NCBI GenBank assembly: GCA_018674495.1
Contig: JABHAA010000147.1
Coordinates: forward strand, 24,111 to 88,110
Direction: 5' to 3'
DNA: 64,000 nt
Source of the DNA: Rhodospirillaceae bacterium
Lineage (GTDB): Bacteria; Pseudomonadota; Alphaproteobacteria; Rhodospirillales; UBA2165
A program made the position numbers and the translations under genes. Positions 8,050 through 54,466 of this stretch are shown piece by piece; positions within the stretch are counted from its first letter, which is position 1; every line of letters starts with the position of its first letter. The notes below the pieces were generated by a model. It saw only the letters and a list, made by a program, of their open reading frames with translations, had not been told where the DNA came from and did not search any database.

Positions 8050-8691
8050 CTAATCTTCCGGGAAGCACCAGCGGCGCGCATCGGCCCGGCCCTTTAGGCA
8101 TTGCAGGCATTGATGCTTCAAGCGATTATGAATTTCCAAAAAACCGGCGGTGCAGGTTTTGAGAAATTCCGCTTCGTTTTGGTCATCAATTTTTAGACTG
8201 ACAATCGGCGCGCCGGTGACAGGCGGCTGGCTAAAGCCGAGGTTGGTCAACATACGCACCGTGGCCGGATGGACCGCATGACTTAAAATCGTGTCGATAT
8301 TGAGGTCCGCATCCTCGGTCAGATCCTTGAACAATTTTGCCACCGTCATCATGGCGATACCCTGGCGGCGGACGTCGCGGTTGACGACGATCGAATCCAA
8401 TTTGCACGCCTGATGCTGGTTTAATTTGTTCTGGCTCAGAACGGCGGTCGCGGTCGCGCACAGCTTGCCGCAGGCATAAAGTCCGACCAGCCGGATTTCG
8501 CGCTCCGCATCCTCACTATGGCCGCCATCGAGGGCCGTCTGAATGGGGCCGATCTCATCGGAGCGGGCATGGCGGATAATAAAAGCGCCGTAGGCTTCAC
8601 GGGTAACGGGCGCAAAATACAGCCCCTGCATCTCTTTGGGCTGATCAAATTCTGATTGGGTGTCTAACGGCCCCATTTGCCTTGCCCCCAA
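8050..8691 (-). CDS. GNAT-family N-acetyltransferase-like protein with a Cys-rich C-terminal tail
   Basis: Acetyl-CoA-binding motif-A-like VVNRDVRRQGIAMM. C-terminal C-x14-C-x2-C-x10-C pattern. Its stop is 3 nt upstream of the deacetylase start. The exact start codon is uncertain. Confidence 0.6.
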   Translation of the reverse strand: MGARQMGPLDTQSEFDQPKEMQGLYFAPVTREAYGAFIIRHARSDEIGPIQTALDGGHSEDAEREIRLVGLYACGKLCATATAVLSQNKLNQHQACKLDSIVVNRDVRRQGIAMMTVAKLFKDLTEDADLNIDTILSHAVHPATVRMLTNLGFSQPPVTGAPIVSLKIDDQNEAEFLKTCTAGFLEIHNRLKHQCLQCLKGRADARRWCFPED

Positions 8692-8904: not shown

Positions 8905-9363
8905 ATGAGCCTCAGCAAGAAATCCACGGCATTTTTAATTTTGGTATTTGCTCTTGCGGGCTGCTCCCTGGGCCTCCCTTACAATAAAGCCAAGCCGGAT
9001 TTTCCAAAACTGGCAGCCGGGAAAAGCCGGGTGTTCGTCTACCGGGCCGCCAACCCCCTGGCGATAGCTTTTCCGAGGGTGGTTATGATGGACGCCAAGC
9101 CGTTCGGTGACATCTTCGCCGGCACAACGACCTACCGCGACGTGGCGACGGGCAGCCACGATTTTTCCTTCGCCGGACAGAAAACCAAATTGAACCTGCA
9201 ATTACGGCCCGGCGACGAGACCTTCCTGCGGGTCTCGTTGGACGTGAACAATGAGGGGATCGGGGACACCGTCATTAAAGTGATACCCAAGCAAACGGCA
9301 GAACAAGACATGTATTATACCAACATGATCGAGCCCAAGGTCCGCGATCTGATCAAAAAATAG
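8905..9363 (+). CDS. Small lipoprotein (DUF2846-like)
   Basis: Lipobox LALAGC in MSLSKKSTAFLILVFALAGCS. RBS GGAGAG upstream. The DUF assignment is from memory only. Confidence 0.6.
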   Translation: MSLSKKSTAFLILVFALAGCSLGLPYNKAKPDFPKLAAGKSRVFVYRAANPLAIAFPRVVMMDAKPFGDIFAGTTTYRDVATGSHDFSFAGQKTKLNLQLRPGDETFLRVSLDVNNEGIGDTVIKVIPKQTAEQDMYYTNMIEPKVRDLIKK

Positions 9364-9396: not shown

Positions 9397-9471
9397 TGGC
9401 TGGGGCGCAGGGATTTGAACCCCGATTTTCCGGGTCAGAGCCGGACGTAATAGCCATTATACGACGCCCCA
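9397..9471 (-). tRNA. tRNA-Gln (anticodon CUG)
   Basis: Folded by hand into a 75-nt cloverleaf. Acceptor TGGGGCG/CGCCCCA with discriminator G and an encoded CCA. 3-bp D-stem as in E. coli tRNA-Gln. Anticodon stem TCCGG/CCGGA with loop CTCTGAC. T-loop TTCAAAT. Confidence 0.85.
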
Positions 9472-9654: not shown

Positions 9655-9797
9655 ACCACTTTGAATCAGACCCGCGGGCTCCCATATGCCAAATTGGAGA
9701 GTAAGTTCAGCGGCATCAAAACAATAACATCCGCGAAAAGAGATGTGGCTGGATGGCGGCGAAGCAATAAGACAGAAAAGCGAACCGAGGAACTATA

Positions 9798-12149
9798 ATG
9801 GACGCTCGAACACCCGAAACAGATCAAGTGGACGATGGACCGCTGACCGAAGCCGAGATCAGTCTGGTTCAAGACACCTTCGCAATGGTGGAGCCAATCG
9901 CCGATGATGCGGCGGCCATGTTCTATGGCCGCTTGTTTGAAATCGATCCCGAATTGCGGCGCCTGTTCAAGGACGACCTCGCCTCCCAACGCAAAGCCCT
10001 GATGGCGACATTGAAAGTTGCCGTGAAAGGGCTGAACAATCTACCCGCTATCGTCCCGGCGGTGAAACAGTTGGGCGCACGCCACGCCGGATATGGCGTC
10101 CAAAGCAAGGATTACGACAGTGTCGGCGCCGCGCTTTTATGGACCCTCGAAGAGGGCCTTGGCGAGGCATTTACCGACGAAGTCAAAGCGGCCTGGACCA
10201 CGGTTTACGGACTGCTTGCCGAGACCATGATCGAAGCCGCCCAAGCGGCTCCGGAAACCACACCAGAGATCGAAACCGATCAAATTCATATTGAGGAGAG
10301 TGAAATGCTGCAGACAGCAACTGAGGGAACAAACCAACACGAGCAGATGGTCGAAGGAATGCCCATCAATGTGATGCTTTGCGAATTGTCGAATTTGGAA
10401 ATCACTTACGCCAATAAGGCCAGCATTGATACCTTGCGGACGCTCGAACATCTGCTGCCCTGCAAGGCTGATGATATGGTCGGCCAATGCATCGATATCT
10501 TCCACCAGAACCCGGCGCATCAACGGAGCCTTCTGGCCGATCCCACCAACTTGCCACATTCGGCGATAATCACCATCGGCGACGAGAAGCTGGATCTGTT
10601 GGTGACCGCGCTCTATGACGAATCCGGAACCTACAACGCAGCGATGCTGACCTGGTCCGTGGTCACCCAGAAAGTGCATAGGGACGAAGAAGCCGCCCGC
10701 CTCACTCAGATGGTCGAAAACATGCCCATCAACGTGATGATGTGCAATAACGAAACCCTGGAAATCACCTACGCCAACAAGGCCAGCATCGACACCTTGC
10801 GCACGCTCGAGCATTTGCTGCCCTGCAAGGCAGACGATCTGGTTGGACAATGCATCGACATCTTCCACGCAAACCCGGCCCATCAACGCAAACTTCTTAG
10901 CGATCCGGCCAATCTGCCTCATTCGGCGATTATCGAGCTCGGCGGCGAAAAGCTGGACCTTCTGGTCAGCGCCATCACCGATAACGAGGGCAACTATATT
11001 TCTGCCATGCTGAGCTGGTCGGTGGTCACCGCAAAAGTGAAACAGGAAGCCGAAACTGCGCGCCTCATGCAAATGCTTGAGAGCATGCCGATCAATGTCA
11101 TGATGTGCGACTTGGATGAATTCCAAATCACCTATGCCAACAAGACCAGCATCGAAACCTTGACGCCGCTTGAGAGCCTGCTGCCCTGCAAGGTATCGGA
11201 TATGGTCGGGCAAAGCATCGACATCTTCCACAAGATGCCGCAGCATCAGAGAACGCTCTTATCCGATCCCAGCAACCTGCCCTTTTCGACGCGCATTAGC
11301 CTGGGCGATGAAACCCTGGCACTCAACGTGACGGCGATCAATGATATCGACGGCAATTACATGGCGCCAATGCTGGTCTGGTCGGTGGTTTCTGGTCAGG
11401 TACGCCTCGCCGATAATTTCGAAAGCAACGTCAAAGGCGTTGTCGAAAGCGTCGCCGGCTCGTCGACCGAAATGCAGGCGACCGCCGAAACCATGGCGGC
11501 GGCTGCCGAGGAAGCCTCATCGCAATCGACGGCGGTTGCGGCGGCTACCGAGCAGCTCTCCAAATCGATCGAGGAGATATCCGGTCAAGTGGCCCGCTCC
11601 ACGCAGATTTCGCAAGACGCCGTTATCGAGGCACAACGCTCCAACGAGCAGGTGCAAGGTCTCGCCGATGCGTCCCAGAAGATCGGCGACGTGGTCTCCC
11701 TGATCAACGATATCGCCAGCCAGACCAACCTGTTGGCGCTCAACGCCACCATCGAAGCGGCACGGGCCGGCGATGCGGGCAAAGGCTTCGCGGTGGTTGC
11801 CTCAGAGGTGAAAAACCTGGCCAACCAGACGGCCAAGGCGACCGACGAAATCGCGACGCAAATCGGGGGCATCCAGACCGCCACCCAGTCAGCGGTAGGA
11901 TCGATCGAAGGCATCACCAAGACGATCAACGAGATCTCGGAGATTGCCACCGCCATCGCCGGCGCCGTGGAAGAGCAAAGCGCCGCCACCGGCGAAGTGT
12001 CTTCCAACATTAACGGCGTGACCACCGCATCGGCGGAAACCGGCCAGGCCGCAAGCGAAGTTCTCACGGCGGCGCGTGAGCTCTCCGAGCAATCGGAAAG
12101 CCTCGGCACGGAAGTTGATGGCTTCCTGGTTGAAGTGCGGGCCATGTAA
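9798..12149 (+). CDS. Soluble methyl-accepting chemotaxis protein: N-terminal globin, three tandem PAS-like domains, MCP signalling domain
   Basis: The globin region reads [17 protein letters not shown]...GARHAGYGV...[14 protein letters not shown]. Three ~121-aa repeats each begin MPINVM. The C-terminus carries the highly conserved MCP hairpin [33 protein letters not shown] see no hydrophobic transmembrane segments. Confidence 0.9.
10359..11447 (+). repeat. Three in-frame tandem repeats of 363 bp (PAS-like modules) inside the chemoreceptor gene
   Basis: The ATG CC(C/G) ATC AA(T/C) GTG ATG units begin at 10359, 10722 and 11085, an exact 363-bp period. Copies 1 and 2 are about 80% identical at protein level by eye. 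Copy 3 is more diverged. Confidence 0.85.
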
Positions 12150-12186
12150 TTCCCAGAATGAGCACTGTCATACGTCACAAACTAAA

Positions 12187-12209
12187 CGGCCCTTCGGGGC
12201 CGTTTTTTT
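12187..12209 (+). terminator. Rho-independent terminator after the chemoreceptor gene
   Basis: CGGCCC-TTCG-GGGCCG hairpin followed by TTTTTTT. Confidence 0.8.
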
Positions 12210-12274
12210 GTGTCAAACGCACCATTTGGCAAATGAAGCTTCAACATTACGAAAATTAGGGCTAGTTATAGCTG

Positions 12275-13393
12275 ATGGGACAACGGGGGAATAATCCGGT
12301 GCACACCAATCAGCACCGAAACAAGCGGCGGCGGACCCAATTCGGACCGGCCCGCAATTTCAAGCAACGCCTTTATGGCGCACTTGATCTGGGGACCAAC
12401 AATTGCCGCTTGCTGATCGCCCGCCCGGTGGGTTTCGGGTTTCGTGTAACCGCGTCTTTTTCAAGGGTCGTGCGTTTGGGTGAGGGACTGAGTGCATCCG
12501 GGCGCTTAAGCGATACCGCCATGGACCGCACCATCCAGGCACTAGCCATCTGCGCCGCCAAATTAAAGGATCTGGGCGTCGCTTCCAGCCGCAACATCAC
12601 TACCGAGGCCTGCCGGCGTGCCGACAATTGCAATAGTTTCATCGAAAAAATCGATCAGCAAACCGGCCTCGCGTTCGAGACCATTTCCTACCGGGAGGAG
12701 GCGCGCCTTGCCTTGCTTGGTTGCCAAAGTCTGCTGACCGACGGCCTGCCATACGCCCTGGTATTCGATATCGGCGGCGGCTCCACCGAATTAACCTGGG
12801 CGCGGCGCAACGAGGTCAACGGCTTTGACATCATCGACGTTTTGTCGCTCCCCTTCGGCGTCGTTACCCTGGCCGAGGAATGTGATCCTCCGGAGATTGA
12901 TTGCGGCGCCTACCAAAAAATGGTCGCCCATATTCAAGACCAATTGCCAGATTTTTGTGATCGCAACAAGATCCGCCAGGAAGTTTCGGCCGGGAGCGTT
13001 CAGATGCTGGGAACATCAGGCACGGTGACCACCCTTGGCGCCGTGCATCTGAAACTGCCGCGCTATTCTAGGTCCTTGATCGATGGGTTGGAGATCGATT
13101 TTGAGGCCCTCGAGGCGGCGACGGCGATGCTGTCCAGCCTGGATTTTGAGCGCCGCGCCGAAGTGCCCTGCATCGGCGCCGAGCGGGCCGAGTTGGTAAT
13201 CCCAGGCTGCGCGATATTAGAGGCGATCCGCAAATGCTGGCCGGTGGGCAAGTTGAGCGTCGCTGACCGGGGCCTGCGCGAAGGCATCCTGATGGAACTG
13301 ATGGCCGCCGATGGCGAGCCGATCGTCGGCAATCCGGCGGAACGCGCCCAGATGGATGCGAAGCCGGGCCCCAGTCAGAACGAAACCCAGTGA
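12275..13393 (+). CDS. ppx: Ppx/GppA-family phosphatase (exopolyphosphatase / guanosine pentaphosphate phosphohydrolase)
   Basis: ASKHA-fold phosphate-1 motif ALDLGTNNCRLLIA and the FDIGGGSTEL motif. Overlaps rlmE by 4 bp. Confidence 0.8.
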   Translation: MGQRGNNPVHTNQHRNKRRRTQFGPARNFKQRLYGALDLGTNNCRLLIARPVGFGFRVTASFSRVVRLGEGLSASGRLSDTAMDRTIQALAICAAKLKDLGVASSRNITTEACRRADNCNSFIEKIDQQTGLAFETISYREEARLALLGCQSLLTDGLPYALVFDIGGGSTELTWARRNEVNGFDIIDVLSLPFGVVTLAEECDPPEIDCGAYQKMVAHIQDQLPDFCDRNKIRQEVSAGSVQMLGTSGTVTTLGAVHLKLPRYSRSLIDGLEIDFEALEAATAMLSSLDFERRAEVPCIGAERAELVIPGCAILEAIRKCWPVGKLSVADRGLREGILMELMAADGEPIVGNPAERAQMDAKPGPSQNETQ

Positions 13394-36047: not shown

Positions 36048-38318
36048 TTATCCTCCTGCGTCCTTGATCGCCTTCCTGATTTTCGGCGGCGACACCGGCA
36101 GATCGCGGAAACGAAGCCCAACGGCGTTTTCCACCGCGTTGGCAACGGCGGCTTGCGGCGGCACGATGGGCGTCTCGCCGACACCGCGCACACCATATGG
36201 ATGGTTCGGGTTTGGCACTTCGATCATGCAGACATCGATCATCGGCACGTCCGAGGCCACCGGCACCCGGTAATCCAAGAAGCCGGGATTTTCCAGGCGC
36301 CCCTTGTCATCATAAATATATTCTTCGTTCAATGCCCAACCAATGCCCTGCACGGCGCCGCCCTGCAGCTGGCCTTCCACATAGTCGGGCGAGATGGCCC
36401 GGCCCACGTCTTGGAACACCGTGTAGCGCAGCACCTTCACATGGCCTGACTCTCTGTCCACCTCCACATCCACCAGATGGGCGCCGGTAGCCGGCCCCTG
36501 GCCGGTGGCGTTAATCTCCGCATGGCCGGCGATGGGTCCGCCGGTCATCGGCGCCTTGGCGGCGATCTCGGCGAGGCTCATGGGTTCATGATCGCCCACA
36601 TTGGCGCCGGCCGGGCGGGCATGGCCGTCTTCCCAGACCACCTCTTCTTCGGAGACGCCCCACATCTGGGCAGCCCGGTCGCAAGCGACTTTAATGGCAT
36701 TTCTGGCGGCCAGCACACAGGCCATGCCGGTGGCGAAGGTAACGCGGCTACCGGCGGTGAGGAAGGTAAAGCCGAGCGACGACGTATCGCTGATAATCGG
36801 ACGCACCTTGTTGTAATCGATGCCCAACTCCTCGGCCACCATGGCCGCCATGGAGGCCCGGCTGCCGCCGATGTCGGGGTTACCCTCGATCAGGGTCACC
36901 GTGCCGTCGTCGGATACATTGACCGAAGCACAGCTCATGCCGCCGGCGTGCAACCAGTATCCGGCGGCAAGGCCGCGGCCCTGGTTTTCACCAAGCGGCG
37001 CGTTGTAATGGGGGTGCGCCTTCATTTTTTCCAGCATCTCTTGAAAGCCGATGGGACCGTATTTCATCCCCATGACATTTTGCGTGCCTTCCTTGGCCGC
37101 GTTTATGAGGCGCAGATCGACCCGATCAATCCCCAGCTCATCAGCAAGTTCGTTGATTACACCTTCGACGCCGAACGCTGCCATCGGCACACCAGGGGCG
37201 CGGTAGGCGGCAACCTTGGGCCGGTTGACGCAAACGTCATAACCCCAAACATGAATGTTTTCCAAATCATAAGGCGAGAACATGCAATTCATGGCGGCGC
37301 CAATGCTGGCGCCTTTAAACGCGCCGGCCTGATAGGTCATTTCGCCCTCGGCCGCCGTGATGGTGCCGTCTTTCTTGGCGCCGATTTTGATGCGCACATG
37401 GGCGCCAGAAGTCGGCCCGGTCGCGCGGAACACTTCGTCCCGGCTCATGACCATCTTGACGGGGCGGCGCGCCAGCTGTGCCAAGCGGATAGCCACAGGC
37501 TCACTATAGATCGGGATCTTGCCGCCGAAGCCACCGCCGATTTCCGACGAAGTAACGCGGATTTTGGAAATATCCAAACCCAAAAGCTTGGCACAGGAAC
37601 CACGATCCACGTACTGACCTTGGGTTGAACAAAATAGCTCAACCCCATCATCCGAAGCCTGGGCAACGCAGGCATGTGGCTCGATATAGCCCTGATGCAC
37701 GGCCTTGGTGGTAAATTCGCGCTCAATCACCAGATCAGCTTCGGCGAAGCCTTTTTCCACATCGCCTTTTTGGGCGCGTGGAATCCGGTAGACGTTGGAC
37801 GGCTTGGCGGTTTTTTCGTCCTCGCCCTCCGTAACTTGATCATCGTGCAAGATCGGCGCGTCCGGTTTCATGGCTTCGACCGGGTCGATCACATGGGGCA
37901 GAACTTCGTAATCGACTTCGATAAGTTTCAACGCTTGCCTGGCGATTTTTTCGCTGGTCGCCGCAACCGCAGCCACCGGATGGCCATCATAGAGCACCTT
38001 GTCGCGGGCCATCATATTCATGGAATTGTCGCGAAAATCAGAAATCATCGGCCCGTGCGGTCCCGGTGGTTTGGGAATCGCCGGAAAATCGGCACTGGTT
38101 ACCACGGCCTTGACGCCGGCCAGGGCCTTTGCTTTCGAAGTATCAATGGACTTAATGCGTGCATGGGCGTGCGGCGAGCGCAGCGTCTTGCCAACTAACA
38201 TGCCAGGCAAATACAAATCGGCGCCGTATTTGGCGCGGCCAGTGACCTTGTCGACGCCGTCCGGGCGGGGGTTGCGCTTGCCGACCCATTTAAATTCGGT
38301 ATTCACTTCGTCAGGCAT
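36048..38318 (-). CDS. Xanthine-dehydrogenase-family molybdopterin-binding large subunit (aldehyde oxidase/CoxL-like)
   Basis: 757-codon ORF from ATG 38318 (MPDEVNTEFKWVGK). Contains the GGGFGGK motif. The upstream extension in the track overlaps the 2Fe-2S gene, so I rejected it. Confidence 0.85.
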   Translation of the reverse strand: MPDEVNTEFKWVGKRNPRPDGVDKVTGRAKYGADLYLPGMLVGKTLRSPHAHARIKSIDTSKAKALAGVKAVVTSADFPAIPKPPGPHGPMISDFRDNSMNMMARDKVLYDGHPVAAVAATSEKIARQALKLIEVDYEVLPHVIDPVEAMKPDAPILHDDQVTEGEDEKTAKPSNVYRIPRAQKGDVEKGFAEADLVIEREFTTKAVHQGYIEPHACVAQASDDGVELFCSTQGQYVDRGSCAKLLGLDISKIRVTSSEIGGGFGGKIPIYSEPVAIRLAQLARRPVKMVMSRDEVFRATGPTSGAHVRIKIGAKKDGTITAAEGEMTYQAGAFKGASIGAAMNCMFSPYDLENIHVWGYDVCVNRPKVAAYRAPGVPMAAFGVEGVINELADELGIDRVDLRLINAAKEGTQNVMGMKYGPIGFQEMLEKMKAHPHYNAPLGENQGRGLAAGYWLHAGGMSCASVNVSDDGTVTLIEGNPDIGGSRASMAAMVAEELGIDYNKVRPIISDTSSLGFTFLTAGSRVTFATGMACVLAARNAIKVACDRAAQMWGVSEEEVVWEDGHARPAGANVGDHEPMSLAEIAAKAPMTGGPIAGHAEINATGQGPATGAHLVDVEVDRESGHVKVLRYTVFQDVGRAISPDYVEGQLQGGAVQGIGWALNEEYIYDDKGRLENPGFLDYRVPVASDVPMIDVCMIEVPNPNHPYGVRGVGETPIVPPQAAVANAVENAVGLRFRDLPVSPPKIRKAIKDAGG

Positions 38319-38320
38319 AA

Positions 38321-38797
38321 TCAGGCTCCTCTCATTTCGGCGGCCGTTTCCATGACGGCGCGGATAATTTTGTCGTAACCGGTGCAGCGGCAGAGATTGC
38401 CGGCCAGCCAGAAGCGAACTTCGGTCTCGGATGGGTCTGGATTTTTCTCCAACAGGTTCTTGGCGGCGACCAGAACGCCCGGCGTGCAGATACCGCATTG
38501 CAGGGCGGCCATATCAATGAAGTTGCGCTGCAACGGATGCAGCGCATCGCCGTCGGCCATGCCTTCGATAGTTTCAATCTTGTGGCCGTGGGTCTCGACG
38601 CCCAAGACCAGACAGGAGCAGATCAGCCTTCCATCCATGGTCACAGAGCAAGCCCCGCAATCGCCGGTCCCGCAGCCTTCCTTGGTGCCGGTCATGTGCA
38701 ATTCGTCGCGCAGCACATCCAACAATGTTTGTTCGGTCTCGCAGAGAAATTCGGTCTCATCGCCGTTGATGGTGGTGGTTACGTGTGTTTTGGCCAT
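38321..38797 (-). CDS. (2Fe-2S)-binding small subunit of the molybdo-hydroxylase (CoxS-like)
   Basis: Plant-type cluster CGTGDCGACSV. Second cluster CGICTPG...CRCTGY. Confidence 0.9.
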   Translation of the reverse strand: MAKTHVTTTINGDETEFLCETEQTLLDVLRDELHMTGTKEGCGTGDCGACSVTMDGRLICSCLVLGVETHGHKIETIEGMADGDALHPLQRNFIDMAALQCGICTPGVLVAAKNLLEKNPDPSETEVRFWLAGNLCRCTGYDKIIRAVMETAAEMRGA

Positions 38798-43023: not shown

Positions 43024-44514
43024 TCAATCGCCGCTCTTCGGCAACCAGAGCGTAAAGCGCGCACCGCCTTCCCGCCGGTCTTCGATTTCGATATCACCGC
43101 CATGGCCGCGAAGGACGCTGCGCGCGATCGCCAAACCAAGACCAATGCCGCCGGTTTCCTTGCTGCGCGAACTTTCCAGCCGCACGAATGGCTCGAATAT
43201 TTTTTCCCGCTCCGCCTCTGGGATACCGGGCCCGAAATCATCGACATACACCGAAATTCTTTGCGCATTTTCAGCTAAGCTGAGAATGGCGCGATTGCCA
43301 TAGCGAATGGCGTTCTCGGCCACATTGCGGATGGCCCGGCGCAACGCTGCGGGCCGGCAGCGGACAACCAGCCGCTCGGCTTCATAGAAAGAAATATCGA
43401 GCCCCATATTCTGGAGATCGTCGCACAAACTGTCGATCAATGCGCTGATATCGACGCTGCGTGTGTCTTCCCGTACCGCGTCCTCACGAGCGTAATCCAG
43501 GGCGGCTTCGGTCAATTCCTGCATTTCCTCCAGAGTTTCCAACATGCGAGTGCGCGCCTCTTCATCGTCGACCATTTCGGCCCGCAGGCGAAGCGATGTG
43601 ATCGGTGTGCGCAAGTCGTGGGTAATCGCGGCCAGCATGCGCGCGCGGTCGCTCACAAAACGTTCGAGCCTTTCAGTCATGGCATTAAAGGCGCGCGTCG
43701 TGCCCTGGATGTCGGAGGGTCCATCTTCCGGCAGGGCGGTCACGGCTTCGCCGCGCCCCAACCGCTCGGCCGCCTCGGCCAGCCGGGCCATCGGCCGCGT
43801 GACGCGCCGAACCATCAAAACGGCGATCAGGATGAGGATCAATCCGGCGGCGCCCATTGCGATCACCGAGGAAACCGCGATTGCCATATCCGGCGGCGGA
43901 ACCCGCGTAGCCGCATTCAACCAGCGCCCATTGTTGATGCGCAACGAGACAGCAACCCCGCCCATCCTGGCGGCGTGCATATCTTGAGGACGCATCCGTT
44001 GATGCATGTTGCGGGCGTCCGCGTGAGGGCCGCCGAACATGCGCGCAATGGGGCGCCCCTCCCGCCAGCCCCGCAAAATTGATTGGTCGTCGTCGTCGCC
44101 TTCGATAACCGAGACACGGACGTCGCGCTGCCCGGCACCAAGGAGCGTGCCCAAACGCCCGGCCAATATACGGCCAAGAGTATCCTCGTCGCTATCGTGG
44201 TCATCATCATCGTCGTCCGCGCGAAGCCCGCTTTCGCCATGAGCGGCCACAACCGGAGTATCAGATAAATGAAATCTGGCGCCGGGGGTGCTTGCCGAGG
44301 CCAGGATTGCCTTGTGCAAGCCCGGCGGCGCCTCTTCCATCAATTTGACAACGGCGACGATCCGCGACAGCACCTCCTGGCGCGCCGCGAACATAAGCGC
44401 CAGCCTTCGTTCATCGTGCAGGATAATCAGAACGACCGCCTGGGCCGCAATCAGGATAATCAGGAGAACGGCGGTTAATTGCCCGGCGAGGCTTCGCGGC
44501 CAAATATATTTCAT
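43024..44514 (-). CDS. Sensor histidine kinase (2 TM, acidic and Met/His-rich periplasmic domain, HAMP, HisKA, HATPase)
   Basis: H-box AAITHDLRTPITSL and G-box GGIGLGLAIA. The periplasmic segment contains DDDDDDHDSDED, EGDDDDQS and MFGGPHADARNMHQRMRPQDMH. Confidence 0.85.
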   Translation of the reverse strand: MKYIWPRSLAGQLTAVLLIILIAAQAVVLIILHDERRLALMFAARQEVLSRIVAVVKLMEEAPPGLHKAILASASTPGARFHLSDTPVVAAHGESGLRADDDDDDHDSDEDTLGRILAGRLGTLLGAGQRDVRVSVIEGDDDDQSILRGWREGRPIARMFGGPHADARNMHQRMRPQDMHAARMGGVAVSLRINNGRWLNAATRVPPPDMAIAVSSVIAMGAAGLILILIAVLMVRRVTRPMARLAEAAERLGRGEAVTALPEDGPSDIQGTTRAFNAMTERLERFVSDRARMLAAITHDLRTPITSLRLRAEMVDDEEARTRMLETLEEMQELTEAALDYAREDAVREDTRSVDISALIDSLCDDLQNMGLDISFYEAERLVVRCRPAALRRAIRNVAENAIRYGNRAILSLAENAQRISVYVDDFGPGIPEAEREKIFEPFVRLESSRSKETGGIGLGLAIARSVLRGHGGDIEIEDRREGGARFTLWLPKSGD

Positions 44515-45230
44515 GTCCGCTCCACCTCGGCAGTGAACATGTAGCCGCCGCCGCGCACGGTTTTGATCAAAGTCGGGTTTTTGGCATCCGGTTCGATCTT
44601 CCGGCGCAGGCGGCTCACCTGATTGTCGATGGCCCGGTCGAACACGCGGGCGGCACGGCCACTGGTAATATCCAACAATTGATCGCGGCTCAGCACGGCA
44701 AGCGGATGATCGATAAACGCCGAAAGCAAAAGGAAGTCGGCCGAACTGAGCGGCAGCGAAACCCCATCCGCACCGATCAATTCCCGCTGGGCCAGATCAA
44801 GTGTCCAGCCGGCGAAGCGAACGGTGGATGCTTCCAGTGGCCGCAAGCGCGGCGGCATGGCGTTGGTGCGCCGCGAGATTGTTTTGATGCGCGCCAACAA
44901 TTCGCGTGGATTGAACGGTTTCGTCACATAATCATCGGCGCCCACTTCCAGCCCGATGATGCGGTCCGTTTCGTCATCGCGTGCGGTGAGGAGGATAACC
45001 GGCAAGTCGGAGCTTTGGCGGATAAATTGGCACAGCGACAATCCGTCCTCGCCCGGCATCATAATATCTAAGATAACCAAATCGATGGATGCTATTTTCA
45101 AGGCTTTGCGGGCCTCGCGTGCGTCGGCGGCACTGCTGGCCCGGTATCCGTTCTTCTCCAGATACTTGACCAGGGAATCCCGGATATCGCGATGATCATC
45201 GACGACCAATATATGCGGCTGTTCATTCAA
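44511..45230 (-). CDS. OmpR-family response regulator
   Basis: Receiver domain (HILVVDD...DLVILDIMMPGEDG). Winged-helix motif VSRLRRKIE. Overlaps the kinase gene by 4 bp. Confidence 0.9.
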   Translation of the reverse strand: MNEQPHILVVDDHRDIRDSLVKYLEKNGYRASSAADAREARKALKIASIDLVILDIMMPGEDGLSLCQFIRQSSDLPVILLTARDDETDRIIGLEVGADDYVTKPFNPRELLARIKTISRRTNAMPPRLRPLEASTVRFAGWTLDLAQRELIGADGVSLPLSSADFLLLSAFIDHPLAVLSRDQLLDITSGRAARVFDRAIDNQVSRLRRKIEPDAKNPTLIKTVRGGGYMFTAEVERT

Positions 45231-51976: not shown

Positions 51977-54313
51977 TCACGAACCTGTCAGCGCCCGCCA
52001 GATGCGTTCCGAAGTGACCGGCATTTCGATGTTTTCGATGCCGGTGTGTTTGAGCGCATCGACAATGGCGCTGACGATGACGGCCGGCGCCGGCGTGGTA
52101 CCGCCCTCGCCCACCCCCTTGACGCCGAGGGGATTGCTGGCAGACGGAATCTCGGAAAAATCGATGCGGAAGGGCGGAAAATTATCGGCCCTCGGCATGG
52201 CGTAATCGAGCATGGTGCCGGCCACGATCTGGCCGCTTTGCCTATCGTGTATAGGGCCTTCCATCAGCGCCTGGCCGGCGCCCTGGGCGATGCCGCCATG
52301 CACCTGACCCTCGGCGAGCAACGGATTGATGACCCGCCCGCAATCATCGATCTGGGCATAGTCCACCAGCGTCACGTGCCCGGTTTCGGGGTCCACTTCC
52401 ACCTCGACAATAGCGCAGCCGGCGGGATAGGCGGGCAGCCGTTTTTCCACGTAGCCGGTACCGTCCAGGCCGCCTTGCAAATCCTCCGGCGCATTACCGC
52501 TTTCGGCGGCCGCCGCCACTTCAAAGAGGCTGATGCTCCGGTCGGTGCCTTTGATGGTGAAGGCACCGGCTTCGAATTCGAAATCGTTTTCGGCGGCTTC
52601 CAGGGCGTGCGCCGCGATGCGCTTGCCCTTTTCGATGATCGCGTCCGAGGCCCAGCTCAACACCGTGCCACCGAGGCGCATGGAGCGTACGCTTTGCGAG
52701 CCGCCGCCGACCACGATTTGATTGGAATCACCAAGCGAGATGCGCACCGCACCGAAATCAACGCCGAGCCGCTCGCACAAGACTTGCGCAAACACCGTCT
52801 CGTGTCCCTGGCCGGTCGGCCCGGTACCAATGACAGCGCTGATGCTCCCTGAGCCATGCACCGTGACGTCGGCCCGTTCCCGCGGCATGCCGGTGGGCGT
52901 TTCGAAATAATTGGCAAGGCCCAACCCACGCAGGCGGCCCCTGGCTTCGGAATCTTTGCGCCGCGCTTCGAACCCGTCCCAGCCGGCCAGATCCTGTGCC
53001 GCCTGCATATTTCCAGGGAAATCGACGTTATCCCACGGCACCCCGAAGGCCGAGTTGAAGGGCAGCTTGTCGGCGGGCACCATGTTTTTGCGGCGCAGCT
53101 CCACCCGGTCCATGCCCAAACGCTTGGCCGCGATATCGATGGTGCGCTCGATATTGAAGATGGATTCGGGCCGCCCCGCCCCCCGGTATGGGCCCGTGGG
53201 CACCGTGTTGGTAAAGACGCCGATGCCGTTGAGGTAGGCGTTATCGAAATGATAGCAGCCGGTGGACGTCCAGCCGGCGTTGCTCAGAGGCACATAGGCC
53301 ATGGAGATGGCGCCGACGTTGGAAAGCAGCTTGATCTTTAGCGCCGTGAAATGGCCATCCGCGTCCAGCCCCAAGGTCATGTGGGCGCGGAAATCCCGGC
53401 CATGCATGTCGGATGCGAAACACTCCCACCGCTCGGCCCGCCACTTCACCGGTCGGCCCAGGCGCATTGAGCCCCAGGCGATCAGCACATGTTCGGGGTA
53501 TATGAAATTGCGCGCACCGAAGCCGCCGCCCACATCGGTGGTCACTACATGGATCGATGCGGGCTCCATCCCAAACACCCGGGACAGCATCATCTTGTAA
53601 TTGAACACCCCTTGGGAATCGGCGTGCATGAACAAGGTGCCGGCGGCGGTATCGAAGCTGGCAACCGAGACCCTTGGCTCCATGGGCACCTGCGCAACCC
53701 GGGGATTGACCAGTTCCACCTCGACCACATGGGCGGCGGCGGCCAGGGCGGCATCGGTGGCTGCCTCGTCGCCCTTTTCCATATCGACGGCGATATTGCC
53801 GGGCGCACCCTTCCAGATTTCGGCGGCGCCCGGCTGCATGGCGTCGGATAAATCGACGCTAACCGGCAACTCGGCATAATCGACGCGGATAAGATCGGAC
53901 GCGCCGCGCGCCTGATCGGCAGTCTCGGCGATCACGAAGGCCAGCGGCTGGCCGACGAAGCGCACCCGGTCATCGGCCAAAACTTTTAGCGGGCTTTGGA
54001 ACATTGGCGCGCCGTCCCGGTTGGCCAGGGACGGAACTTCGGGCTGAAACAGACCCGCCGGGTTGGAAATATATGGCAAATCGCCAAGGCCGTCTTCGGC
54101 GTAGTCCTTGGCGGTCAGCACCAATAGCACGCCAGGCGCCTCCTTCGCCGCTGCCACGTCGATGGCGGTAATCTCGGCGTGCGCCATTTCGGCGCGCTTA
54201 ACATGGCCGTGGGCCTGGCCTTCTAAGTTCACATCATCCGTATAAACGCCGTTGCCGGTGAGCAAGCGCTGGTCTTCCACCCGCCGCACCGGCTGGCCGA
54301 TACCCATTTCCAT
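51977..54313 (-). CDS. Xanthine-dehydrogenase-family molybdopterin-binding large subunit (CoxL-like), second copy, without adjacent Fe-S or FAD subunits
   Basis: N-terminus GQPVRRVEDQRLLTGNG. GGGFGAR motif. Start placed at MEMGIG (54313); the track ORF extends to 54445. Confidence 0.8.
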   Translation of the reverse strand: MEMGIGQPVRRVEDQRLLTGNGVYTDDVNLEGQAHGHVKRAEMAHAEITAIDVAAAKEAPGVLLVLTAKDYAEDGLGDLPYISNPAGLFQPEVPSLANRDGAPMFQSPLKVLADDRVRFVGQPLAFVIAETADQARGASDLIRVDYAELPVSVDLSDAMQPGAAEIWKGAPGNIAVDMEKGDEAATDAALAAAAHVVEVELVNPRVAQVPMEPRVSVASFDTAAGTLFMHADSQGVFNYKMMLSRVFGMEPASIHVVTTDVGGGFGARNFIYPEHVLIAWGSMRLGRPVKWRAERWECFASDMHGRDFRAHMTLGLDADGHFTALKIKLLSNVGAISMAYVPLSNAGWTSTGCYHFDNAYLNGIGVFTNTVPTGPYRGAGRPESIFNIERTIDIAAKRLGMDRVELRRKNMVPADKLPFNSAFGVPWDNVDFPGNMQAAQDLAGWDGFEARRKDSEARGRLRGLGLANYFETPTGMPRERADVTVHGSGSISAVIGTGPTGQGHETVFAQVLCERLGVDFGAVRISLGDSNQIVVGGGSQSVRSMRLGGTVLSWASDAIIEKGKRIAAHALEAAENDFEFEAGAFTIKGTDRSISLFEVAAAAESGNAPEDLQGGLDGTGYVEKRLPAYPAGCAIVEVEVDPETGHVTLVDYAQIDDCGRVINPLLAEGQVHGGIAQGAGQALMEGPIHDRQSGQIVAGTMLDYAMPRADNFPPFRIDFSEIPSASNPLGVKGVGEGGTTPAPAVIVSAIVDALKHTGIENIEMPVTSERIWRALTGS

Positions 54314-54466
54314 TTTCGTTTTCCCGCCTGTAATTGTGCCGGTATCCTTGGATGTTCCCGCAACCGACTTCAAGGCAAAAAATTGGGGCCGCGCGCCCCG
54401 CTTGACAGCGGCGATAGAGGACCGAAAATACCGGCTACGCCACAATATGGATTAGAGAGGCCTGCC

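Follow-up and report, generated by a model that had tools for sequence, protein, structure and literature searches.

A predicted soluble chemoreceptor joining a flavohaemoglobin-lineage globin and three Aer2-like PAS-haem repeats to a signalling hairpin without HAMP

Haem-based aerotaxis receptors have been described as two classes, those with Aer2-type PAS-haem domains and the globin-coupled sensors with an S-family globin, such as HemAT (2026 review, PMC13401364). In the first class, a tri-PAS-haem Aer2 of Vibrio vulnificus (VvAer2) was published in 2022; roles have been published for the Eη-His, Iβ-Trp and Hβ-Leu of Aer2 PAS domains, and the PAS domains that lie upstream act as modulators in VcAer2 and VvAer2 (PMC10107281). 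Methyl-accepting chemotaxis proteins (MCPs) that combine PAS domains with a truncated globin were described in silico in 2018, the examples being Corallococcus coralloides Cc_4972 and six other cytoplasmic proteins that carry PAS and Bac_globin together with MCPsignal domains (PMC6194562). Sensors of the HemAT type are soluble, carry an N-terminal haem-globin domain and an MCP hairpin without HAMP, and are presumed to act in aerotaxis. Among alphaproteobacteria, Azospirillum brasilense AerC is a soluble PAS-PAS-MCP receptor in which tandem PAS domains are joined to the hairpin without HAMP. We found no description of a form with an F-type globin and without HAMP in the literature searched.

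We analysed a window of 64,000 nucleotides from a metagenome-assembled genome (MAG) of a Rhodospirillaceae bacterium, in which a single gene was predicted to encode a receptor of this form. The open reading frame proposed in an earlier sequence-only reading was present exactly as given, and all sequence strings quoted there were located. A strong intrinsic terminator (12184-12205) starts 35 nt past the stop codon, directly 3' of the gene, which was therefore taken as monocistronic. The features, all on the forward strand, are as follows.

9787..9791, + strand: Shine-Dalgarno-like GAGGA, 6 nt 5' of the ATG (read from the sequence)
9798..12149, + strand: receptor gene, 783 aa, ATG start, stop codon included (ORF list)
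9840..10247, + strand: 3-on-3 globin of the F family (single-domain, like flavohaemoglobins), aa 15-150 (PF00042, PDB matches, AF2, Foldseek)
10248..10340, + strand: acidic, Pro/Thr/Glu-rich, predicted flexible tether, aa 151-181 (31 aa) (AF2, linkers of relatives)
10341..10703, + strand: putative PAS-haem repeat 1, aa 182-302 (PDB alignment, AF2 PAS fold)
10704..11066, + strand: putative PAS-haem repeat 2, aa 303-423 (identity to repeat 1, matches to 3vol and 4hi4)
11067..11393, + strand: putative PAS-haem repeat 3, aa 424-532, adjoining the hairpin (match of aa 428-526 to 6ceq, AF2)
11394..12146, + strand: predicted kinase-control (MCP signalling) hairpin, aa 533-783 (PF00015, Tsr alignment, AF2)
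12184..12215, + strand: strong intrinsic terminator with a 9-bp stem of which 6 pairs are GC, followed by a T-run (terminator scan)

A 783-aa protein that is 100% identical is held at NCBI as MBT3549810.1, among others, under the name 'MAG: PAS domain-containing protein [Rhodospirillaceae bacterium]', and 74 blocks of a public assembly collection index the exact protein. The annotations found for the receptor were only "PAS domain-containing protein" or "methyl-accepting chemotaxis protein". Pfam assigned to it a Globin domain (PF00042), three PAS_8 domains and an MCPsignal domain, in keeping with the proposal of a soluble chemoreceptor that joins an F-lineage globin and three PAS modules of Aer2 type to an MCP hairpin, without a transmembrane (TM) segment or HAMP. 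This layout held in all computational tests that were run, and the conclusion is supported by both sequence comparison and structure modelling. The same proposal had counted up to four putative haem sites, and all four domains keep the complete sets of haem-pocket residues known from relatives that have been characterised by experiment.

The globin domain matched PF00042 with 61.8 bits (cutoff 22; E = 1e-16), and its best matches by sequence in the PDB were 3s1i (1.5e-28), 3wfw (1.5e-25) and 1vhb (2.4e-20), which are Hell's Gate globin I of Methylacidiphilum (HGbI), a globin-Roadblock/LC7 fusion (HGbRL) and Vitreoscilla haemoglobin (VHb), respectively. The strings by which the earlier reading had placed the globin, including the context of the proximal His, aligned with Vitreoscilla haemoglobin as proposed (E = 2e-20), with Y43, Q64 and H96 of the receptor opposite Y29, Q53 and H85 of VHb. 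The pocket comprises Phe42 (B9), Tyr43 (B10), Phe57 (CD1), Gln64 (E7), Leu68 (E11), His96 (F8, codon 10083-10085) and Tyr106 (G5), and these seven residues were invariant in 47 of the 47 globins of the family. In the AF2 model, aa 15-150 had pLDDT values of 85-93, and Foldseek superposed the modelled globin on HGbI (3s1i) with a TM-score of 0.94 and an rmsd of 1.2 Å. HGbI, HGbRL and VHb likewise have Tyr-B10, Gln-E7, His-F8, Tyr-G5 and a 3-on-3 fold and lack a reductase domain, whereas the globin here is one module inside a chemoreceptor. Of the proximal His-Tyr-Glu triad known from flavohaemoglobins, the receptor globin lacks the Glu, with Ala standing at H23.

We further compared the domain with globins of the sensor lineage, to which the earlier reading had suggested it does not belong. 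Only PF00042 was matched; neither Protoglobin (PF11563) nor Bac_globin gave a match at E ≤ 1 in the Pfam scan of the receptor. The PDB matches were all of F/M type (HGbI, HGbRL, VHb, Hmp and neuroglobin), and names of HemAT, globin-coupled sensors or protoglobins were found neither among the best 60 of 67 PDB matches at E ≤ 0.01 nor among all 53 matches at E ≤ 0.001. These results agree with that suggestion. The NCBIfam flavohaemoprotein model matched through its globin part alone (positions 2-138 of 399), and we detected no FAD/NAD reductase domain in the receptor with Pfam and no reductase gene adjacent to it. A non-haem, RsbR-like reading of the globin was ruled out by the invariance of His-F8 and of the whole pocket. 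As an observation in its own right, the invariant pocket fits the role of a true in-line sensor equally well.

Between the globin and the first PAS domain, the AF2 model showed no secondary structure over aa 152-178, with pLDDT values of 25-41 in the tether. Across relatives this linker is hypervariable, with a length of 24-60 aa and a sequence that is not conserved. The junctions between PAS domains, in contrast, are conserved across relatives and helical in AF2.

The three PAS repeats follow one another with a period of exactly 121 aa, as marked by MPINVM at aa 188, 309 and 430, and share pairwise amino acid identities of 75/58/58%, repeats 1 and 2 being the pair at 75%. With PAS1 as the query, PAS2 was retrieved at E = 1e-58 and PAS3 at 6e-43. 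The only PDB structures that the repeat sequences matched were Aer2 PAS-haem domains: for repeat 1 the E-values were 4.5e-15 with 6ceq (VcAer2 PAS2), 8.6e-10 with 3vol and 2.2e-9 with 4hi4, and in repeat 2 the match to 3vol covered aa 293-427 and that to 4hi4 aa 299-408. Identities in the Foldseek superpositions of the PAS models were 37% to VcAer2 PAS2 (6ceq) and 27-32% to PaAer2 (4hi4, 3vol). Each repeat has the proposed IDIFH-x4-HQR motif with its two His residues and a late Trp. The residues are Eη-His236 (codon 10503-10505), His241, Hβ-Leu267 and Iβ-Trp286 (codon 10653-10655) in repeat 1; Eη-His357 (codon 10866-10868), His362, Leu388 and Trp407 (codon 11016-11018) in repeat 2; and Eη-His478 (codon 11229-11231), His483, Leu509 and Trp528 (codon 11379-11381) in repeat 3.

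Alignment to the PAS domains of PaAer2 and VcAer2 brought the first His, the Leu and the Trp into coincidence in all three repeats. The IDIFHxNPAHQR of the repeats aligns with IDVFHKNPAHQR of PaAer2, which places His236, His357 and His478 at the position of H234; W286, W407 and W528, within LTWSV in the repeats, align with the Trp of VQWTD (W283); and L267, L388 and L509 stand opposite the Leu in FSLDV, which lies in the ligand cleft, and are invariant or nearly so in the family. The correspondence given in the sequence-only reading thus stood for the first His and the Trp, but not for the second His (His239 type), which is not documented as haem-ligating. In the literature consulted the haem ligand is named as the Eη-His (H234 of PaAer2) and the second His is not so named (PMC10107281, PMC13401364), and the title of PDB entry 4hi4 gives a 5-coordinate haem. 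Since only the Eη-His is documented, and 69 of the 404 family repeats carry another residue in place of the second His, we do not call the latter haem-ligating.

Conservation was computed over 404 PAS repeats from 120 relatives. The Eη-His was kept in 401/404 repeats and the Iβ-Trp in 404/404; a Gln (397/404) and an Arg (394/404) were further conserved positions. This pattern points clearly to purifying selection on the predicted haem-pocket residues. Repeats of the FAD-binding type (as in Aer or AerC) or of the FixL/DOS type were ruled out, since only Aer2 PAS-haem structures were matched and the Aer2-specific set of His, Trp and Leu is conserved. The Iβ-Trp is followed by S-V-V-T in PAS1 and PAS2 and by S-V-V-S in PAS3, and the position of the Asp in the DxT motif of Aer2 is occupied by Val or Ile in 386/404 family repeats and in 118/120 last repeats.

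The signalling hairpin matched PF00015 (MCPsignal) over aa 615-763 with 119 bits (cutoff 34.6; E = 2.5e-34). Its tip lies at Asp659 (codon 11772-11774), where the conserved tip motif aligns with that of Tsr and D659 stands opposite Tsr E391; G533 falls near Tsr residue 265, which we take to be about the HAMP-to-bundle junction of Tsr. Counted from Trp528, the tip is reached after 131 residues, against 124 residues that follow it up to the C-terminus, and the arms of the hairpin measure about 128 and 124 aa; the Tsr alignments differ by one heptad, so that the hairpin is read as either 34H or 36H. Candidate methylation pairs are E571/E572, E585/Q586, E592/E593 and E725/E726, with either E571/E572 against E303/E304 or E585/Q586 against E310/Q311 as Tsr-like pair positions. 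Adaptation by methylation is plausible, since Glu/Gln pairs occur at these Tsr-like positions. The C-terminal pentapeptide is absent from the receptor.

Neither a TM segment nor a HAMP domain precedes the hairpin, as had been proposed. The maximum Kyte-Doolittle mean over 19 residues was 1.16, and no HAMP was matched by Pfam at E ≤ 1 in the receptor. In the AF2 model, Iβ (521-530) passes into one continuous helical hairpin (531-782). Pfam, arm lengths, the AF2 model and the Tsr alignment, as four tests, agree in predicting a receptor without HAMP. Since AF2 modelled the receptor as a monomer (pTM 0.28) and pLDDT values are below 50 at the junctions aa 291-298, 416-422 and 533-540, the model does not establish the geometry between domains.

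We next set these features against the described systems. VvAer2, VcAer2 (dual PAS-haem) and PaAer2/McpB are also soluble MCPs with PAS domains of the same subfamily, and the Eη-His, Hβ-Leu and Iβ-Trp of the Aer2 family are common to the receptor here. The three PAS units are shared with VvAer2, for which a 36H hairpin of similar length has been reported. However, the conserved core of Aer2 consists of the last PAS, a di-HAMP and the kinase-control domain (PMC10107281), and the di-HAMP is missing here. The W-x-D-x-T motif that links PAS to HAMP in Aer2 reads W-S-V-V-S in PAS3, with Val in place of Asp; compared with Aer2, the receptor adds an N-terminal globin and is without the C-terminal pentapeptide, and its host is alphaproteobacterial (a Rhodospirillaceae MAG), whereas Aer2 is gammaproteobacterial. 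The NCBIfam equivalog for Vibrio Aer2 (NF041847), which has a curated cutoff of 1200 bits, gave 348 bits and matched nothing outside the PAS region (aa 181-539). With the DxT motif and the di-HAMP core both absent, the receptor is on sequence grounds Aer2-like and not an Aer2 orthologue.

The receptor shares with HemAT-type sensors the architectural traits given above, but HemAT has an S-family globin and a short helical linker, whereas here we found an F-lineage globin, a predicted disordered tether and three putative PAS-haem domains. The idea of a globin from outside the sensor lineage is shared with proteins of the Cc_4972 type, in which the globin is a 2-on-2 truncated haemoglobin (PF01152) and not, as here, a 3-on-3 globin (PF00042) with three PAS-haem domains. 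The PAS domains of these proteins were not recognised as Aer2-type haem-binding, and the likeness to the present family is by description (PMC6194562). AerC has FAD-binding PAS domains and no globin, and is likewise comparable to the receptor by description.

By sequence, the receptor belongs to a large modular family that occurs almost only in metagenomes. Its architectures have 2-7 PAS-haem units, and the globin is of F type, of truncated type, C-terminal or absent. For example, the sister receptors P0012 and P0085 combine a truncated haemoglobin with PAS-haem and MCP domains; in P0069 and others, a globin of the F-type clade lies C-terminal to the MCP; and the F-type clade also occurs doubled, fused to CheW and fused to CheA at the P2 position. 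The close relative P0004 has exactly one 121-aa unit fewer (aa 200-320). Scanning contigs with back-translated patterns, we obtained at least 80 loci, mostly matches to the signalling domain alone (EVKNLANQ being generic to MCPs), and a local tblastn of the loci listed identified PAS-haem in 20 and the globin in 3, all in MAGs; no cultured host was among the matches listed. The family is common in uncultured marine alphaproteobacteria and abundant in the Rhodospirillales among them, Magnetovibrio-like MAGs included. In a neighbour-joining tree of the last-PAS and MCP core, computed without support values, the presence of the globin was patchy. The architecture had been called unusual: it is not a singleton but one of a large family, and the F-type globin form without HAMP is undescribed in the literature searched.

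On the basis of sequence, modelling and analogy, we consider that the receptor is probably a cytoplasmic multi-haem receptor for gas taxis, most likely towards O2, in which PAS3 would drive the hairpin directly and the globin would be accessory. A ligand at the haem of PAS3 would reposition the Iβ-Trp, as in Aer2 receptors, and the Iβ strand of PAS3 is predicted to run into the helix at the N-terminal end of the kinase-control bundle. In this position, which in Tsr is that of the HAMP, PAS3 would hand its signal straight to the hairpin, from where it would reach CheA/CheW. PAS1 and PAS2, joined by conserved helical junctions, may modulate the gain or the range of PAS3, like the upstream PAS domains of VcAer2 and VvAer2. 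Because the Asp of the Aer2 DxT motif is Val here, the coupling mechanism may differ from that of Aer2; the sign of the signal also varies among Aer2 homologues, that of LiAer2 being inverted. Because the linker is disordered in AF2 and hypervariable while the PAS-PAS junctions are conserved, the globin would most likely be an accessory haem module on a tether and not a rigid in-line relay; the occurrence of the same clade at either end of MCPs, doubled, and on CheW and CheA also favours this view, as do sister receptors in which a truncated haemoglobin takes its place. It might serve as a second ligand site, probably of higher affinity, that docks on the receptor, or it might condition the local supply of O2 or NO.

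An alternative is an in-line integrator of four inputs, in which the globin would be the primary sensor and its signal would be relayed to the hairpin through PAS1, PAS2 and PAS3 as 'amplifier' stages. Such a relay would be consistent with the N-terminal position of the globin, which is that of globin-coupled sensors, with its invariant ligand pocket and with the conserved, helical junctions between PAS domains; moreover, an upstream PAS of VvAer2 can signal through a haem-less PAS3 (PMC10107281). However, the disordered globin-PAS1 linker of variable length and sequence, the position of the globin outside the sensor lineage, and relatives in which the globin is C-terminal to the MCP, swapped for a 2-on-2 globin or absent on similar cores make this arrangement unlikely. 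We assign a similarly low probability to an enzymatic or buffering accessory role with no signalling input, in which the tethered globin would act on NO as a dioxygenase or scavenge O2 and so protect or tune the PAS-haem sensors or, more widely, the array. Its Tyr-B10/Gln-E7 pocket is that of VHb, flavohaemoglobins and HGbI, which are high-affinity O2-binding, NO-dioxygenating globins, and both the flexible tether and the occurrence of the same clade on MCP C-termini (single or doubled), CheW and CheA would fit a module that need only be sited at the array. Against such a role stand the lack of a reductase domain and of an adjacent reductase gene, the incomplete flavohaemoglobin triad (Ala at H23) and the small amount of gas that a stoichiometric globin would buffer.

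A further reading concerns the output and the ligand, namely that the receptor feeds a Che-like pathway other than motility, which might control, for example, biofilm, second messengers or development, or that its stimulus is redox or NO and not O2. In favour of this reading, the gene stands as an orphan amid housekeeping genes, it is debated whether aerotaxis is the native role even of PaAer2, and Aer2 PAS domains bind CO and NO too. The tip and the candidate methylation sites are nevertheless canonical, resembling those of the 36H E. coli receptor Tsr, and the O2-stabilising Trp is universally conserved, and we therefore regard it as very improbable. The reading that we prefer remains that of a gas taxis receptor driven by PAS3 with an accessory globin.

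More broadly, we tentatively propose that F-family globins could form an unrecognised class of tethered modules of chemosensory arrays in marine bacteria, carried on MCP N- or C-termini, on CheW and at CheA P2; together with 2-7 HAMP-less PAS-haem units they would provide up to about 8 haems, which might set or widen the O2/NO range at oxic-anoxic interfaces. If this is the case, it would break the textbook rule by which S-lineage globins serve globin-based signalling, and Aer2-type PAS-haem signalling would be shown to be independent of HAMP. The receptor and its family appear to merge both classes of haem aerotaxis receptor, using a globin of the "wrong", flavohaemoglobin lineage, and dispense with the di-HAMP, which the Aer2 literature counts in the conserved signalling core. 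They could serve as a test case for the direct drive of a chemoreceptor hairpin by a PAS-haem domain, for the reason why several haem domains are stacked in one receptor, and for the tethered globin as a second input, an extender of the affinity range or NO protection. Microoxic positioning is ecologically central for the marine Rhodospirillales that carry the family.

We finally considered the genomic surroundings of the receptor gene. The Pfam scan, which covered 20 ORFs of the window, identified no che genes, nor did the 8-kb flanks on matching contigs contain any, and local phmmer searches detected no second homologue of the MCP, PAS-haem or globin domains in the window. A link to CO dehydrogenase was rejected: the two molybdopterin subunits in the window, of the xanthine-dehydrogenase family, are without the CoxL signature motifs AYxCSFR and AYRGAGR. 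The receptor gene is an orphan among housekeeping genes, as are the genes at the loci of the identical protein and at the locus of one relative with a C-terminal globin.

The open reading frame at 9798-12149 (+) is complete and encodes a receptor of 783 aa, in which a globin (aa 15-150), a tether (aa 151-181) and three PAS repeats (from aa 182, 303 and 424) precede an MCP hairpin (aa 533-783); all strings quoted from it in the sequence-only reading were present. That reading had assigned the globin to the flavohaemoglobin-like (F) rather than the sensor (S, HemAT) lineage, and we reached the same placement because the matches were of the PF00042 and Vitreoscilla haemoglobin (VHb) type, the pocket aligned with that of VHb and no sensor-named entry appeared. 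In Pfam searches, Globin PF00042 matched aa 41-143 (E = 1e-16), and neither Protoglobin nor Bac_globin matched the receptor even at E ≤ 1. The best match among solved structures was Methylacidiphilum Hell's Gate globin I (3s1i, 1.5e-28), with further matches to the HGbRL globin (3wfw), VHb (1vhb, 2.4e-20) and the flavohaemoglobins of E. coli and Cupriavidus; none of the PDB matches listed for the receptor or its globin was named as a globin of the sensor lineage. In the VHb alignment, Phe42/Tyr43 corresponded to B9/B10, Phe57 to CD1, Gln64 to E7, Leu68 to E11, His96 to F8 and Tyr106 to G5, and the H23 Glu was the sole member of the flavohaemoglobin proximal triad that was missing. These seven pocket residues were invariant in the F-type globins of the family (47/47, among the best 120 of 2,235 relatives). 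An AlphaFold2 model of the receptor, built on 35 same-architecture relatives (mean pLDDT 76.7), was confident in the globin (pLDDT 85-93), which Foldseek superposed on 3s1i with a TM score of 0.94 and an rmsd of 1.2 Å.

Pfam PAS_8 matched the receptor three times. The PAS repeats have an exact period of 121 aa and identities of 75/58/58%, and they found one another at E = 1e-58 and 6e-43 (phmmer). Only three PDB sequences were matched by them, all Aer2 PAS-haem domains: 6ceq (PAS2 of Vibrio cholerae Aer2, 4.5e-15), 3vol and 4hi4 (both Pseudomonas aeruginosa Aer2, PaAer2). The 12-aa IDIFH-x4-HQR segment of the receptor aligned onto IDVFHKNPAHQR of PaAer2, the Trp of LTWSV with the Trp of VQWTD, and L267 with the Leu of FSLDV; in PaAer2 these positions are His234, His239, Trp283 and the Hβ-Leu. 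The numbering of H234 is supported by a published review (PMC13401364). The model contained three PAS folds, each with a short Eη helix at the IDIF-H motif, which superposed on 6ceq, 3vol and 4hi4 with TM scores of 0.76-0.82 (Foldseek). The His/His/Trp correspondence with Aer2 that had been proposed is therefore right as an alignment; however, a haem-ligand role is documented for just one His of each PAS.

A word-indexed search retrieved 2,235 proteins resembling the receptor at E ≤ 1e-10, so that what had been called an unusual integrator instead belongs to a large modular family. With a repeat HMM, we found 404 PAS units in the best 120 of these relatives, 2 to 7 in each. The Eη-His was kept in 401/404 repeats, the Iβ-Trp in 404/404, and the next Gln and Arg in 397/404 and 394/404, respectively; the second His was present in only 335/404, with Tyr, Phe, Met or Val elsewhere. 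A PF00042 globin was N-terminal in 38/120 relatives and C-terminal in 9/120, an N-terminal truncated haemoglobin (PF01152) took its place in 21/120, and the remainder were globin-free. The C-terminal cases (PAS-PAS-MCP-globin: P0069, P0070, P0074, P0076, P0079, P0083, P0086, P0094 and P0095) carry the globin on a low-complexity linker of 20-30 aa. On a neighbour-joining tree of the last-PAS and MCP core, computed without support values, the presence and type of globin were patchy. The linker between globin and PAS1 was 24-60 aa long, of low complexity and unconserved in relatives, and PAS-PAS junctions were conserved. A close relative, P0004, shares 93% identity with the receptor over the common block from PAS2 to the C-terminus (91% by BLASTP) and lacks exactly one 121-aa PAS unit, equivalent to receptor aa 200-320 (nt 10395-10757), as an in-register PAS1/PAS2 hybrid deletion. 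Because these two proteins differ by one exact unit, PAS repeat number is, to judge from their sequences, labile and changes by unequal recombination over short evolutionary times. Among the genome loci listed and protein sources examined, the PAS-haem core occurred only in MAGs or metagenomic contigs (Rhodospirillales, Thalassospiraceae, Magnetovibrio sp. and others), and the globin form was found in at least three species-representative genomes among the matches listed.

The MCPsignal domain was located at aa 615-763 (E = 2.5e-34, Pfam). The receptor has no hydrophobic segment (top 19-residue Kyte-Doolittle mean, 1.16) and no Pfam HAMP match even at E ≤ 1. From Trp528 to the tip at Asp659 the N-arm of the hairpin measures 131 residues and the C-arm 124, and therefore a di-HAMP, which takes up about 100 aa, would not fit; in some 100 of the 120 relatives, 111-130 residues lie between the last PAS and the tip. 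In the model, the PAS3 Iβ strand (aa 521-530) was followed without a break by one helical hairpin (aa 531-782). An ungapped alignment with full-length Tsr set Asp659 on the tip Glu391 and Gly533, just past PAS3, near residue 265, which we take to be about where HAMP meets the methylation-helix bundle. Because of the latter match, PAS3 appears to occupy the place of HAMP. The earlier statement that both transmembrane segments and HAMP are absent was thus borne out by hydropathy, Pfam, arm lengths, model and Tsr alignment. Pfam HAMP was confined to outliers among the 120 relatives, such as P0085 and P0053; the latter is a Vibrio profundum 'aerotaxis transducer Aer2' of 1312 aa with seven PAS-haem-like repeats and a di-HAMP, compared with three PAS in the characterised Vibrio vulnificus protein (VvAer2). 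Glu/Gln pairs lie at Tsr-like methylation positions in a register uncertain by one heptad, and the receptor class is therefore 34H or 36H; the C-terminal pentapeptide is absent.

In characterised Aer2, O2 at the haem moves the Hβ-Leu and turns the Iβ-Trp, and the signal exits via the PAS C-terminus, the last PAS being modulated by those upstream (PMC10107281). The haem His, Hβ-Leu and Iβ-Trp are all kept in the receptor. Given their conservation and the direct fusion of PAS3 to the bundle, direct transmission is the most economical model: PAS3 would pass its signal straight into the N-arm helix, and PAS1 and PAS2 would modulate PAS3. The globin would be an accessory, either a docking second sensor or a local O2/NO-conditioning module. 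We consider this combined model moderately probable, and give less weight both to a globin that relays through the PAS domains to the hairpin and to one that is an enzymatic accessory. A rigid in-line relay is opposed, and the accessory role favoured, by the tether, which is hypervariable and disordered in the model (aa 152-178, pLDDT 25-41), by the N- or C-terminal position of the globin and by its interchange with a 2-on-2 globin.

Although the receptor may work in the manner of Aer2, it is not Aer2: it lacks the di-HAMP core, and scored 348 bits against the 1,200 cutoff of the NCBIfam equivalog model. It also lacks the "DxT" motif, the PAS-to-HAMP link according to the Watts laboratory (PMC10107281), where it reads W-S-V-V-T/S; in 386/404 family repeats, Val or Ile stands at the Asp position. 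The overall observation of the sequence-only reading was confirmed and its interpretation supported, with three corrections: a single documented haem-ligand His in each PAS, a protein that is Aer2-like and not Aer2 itself, and membership of a large modular family in place of a unique integrator. HemAT-type globin-coupled sensors have a similar layout, but the receptor lacks their defining S-family globin. A tri-PAS-haem Aer2 has been published (VvAer2; PMC10107281), and receptors combining PAS, Bac_globin and MCP were seen in silico in seven complete genomes, the Aer2-type haem PAS being unrecognised (PMC6194562). In reviews of aerotaxis receptors (PMC13401364) and of globin diversity (PMC7475203), PAS-haem receptors form one class and globin receptors another, and MCP outputs are given to S-family globins only. 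In a search with most subscription journals outside its scope, no account of F-type globins joined to Aer2-type PAS-haem arrays came to light. The receptor is attractive mainly as a natural example, open to experiment, of PAS-haem signalling without HAMP and of the recruitment of non-sensor-lineage globins into chemosensory proteins.

With the globin domain alone as query, exhaustive HMMER searching gave 9,583 matches at E ≤ 1e-3, of which 254 reached E ≤ 1e-30. The closest were single-domain globins (55-63% identity), and many of the rest were fusions. Among 107 multi-domain representatives, many of whose records are fragments, the partners included MCPsignal (21), CheW-like (5), MscS-channel (3) and EAL (2) domains. 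Fusion orders of this globin clade included MCP-globin, MCP-globin-globin, PAS-less globin-MCP and globin-CheW (P0225). In P0152, P0187 and P0198 an MCP ends in one globin or two, and in P0237 a globin forms the C-terminus of an MscS-type channel; the CheA P0260 carries its globin between Hpt and the dimerisation domain, with ATPase, CheW and receiver after them. The same literature search found no description of globin-CheA/CheW fusions, C-terminal-globin MCPs or MscS-globin proteins. Up to 14 tandem globin units occurred per protein; P0142 (2461 aa), P0143 (1842 aa), P0145 (2352 aa) and P0157 (3690 aa) have 7-14, with 32-39% identity to the window globin.

The following features flank the receptor gene:

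9397-9471 (-), tRNA-Gln (anticodon CTG), in the 435-bp gap 5' of the gene
6 nt 5' of the receptor ATG (+), ribosome-binding site GAGGA, read from the sequence
35 nt past the receptor stop codon, strong intrinsic terminator (terminator scan)

Because it has its own ribosome-binding site and terminator and an opposite-strand tRNA-Gln upstream, the gene is predicted to be a stand-alone transcription unit. The tRNA gene separates it from an upstream DUF2846-like lipoprotein gene (8905-9363). An identical protein is recorded at NCBI (MBT3549810.1 and others), annotated as 'PAS domain-containing protein', and was read on 23 contigs, from 74 collection blocks indexing it, with the same neighbours at the places listed. 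Neither a Pfam scan of 20 window ORFs nor the flanks of matching contigs revealed any che gene. A Ppx/GppA gene (12275-13393) adjoins the receptor gene; the gene of P0083 (loci L084 and L085) is also an orphan and adjoins ppk-ppx, and this parallel may be coincidence. A 213-aa ORF at 8050-8691 (-) drew no match from Pfam at E ≤ 1e-5; every receptor-carrying contig has it in the same place, where it was called as 208 aa. Farther away, 36048-38498 (-) and 51977-54445 (-) encode two paralogues, of 816 and 822 aa, of the molybdopterin-binding large subunit in the xanthine dehydrogenase/aldehyde oxidase family, both without the CoxL CO-dehydrogenase active-site motifs. A 496-aa HAMP-HisKA-HATPase sensor histidine kinase at 43024-44514 (-) is apparently unrelated to the receptor, and the adjoining 239-aa ORF (44511-45230) may encode its response regulator.
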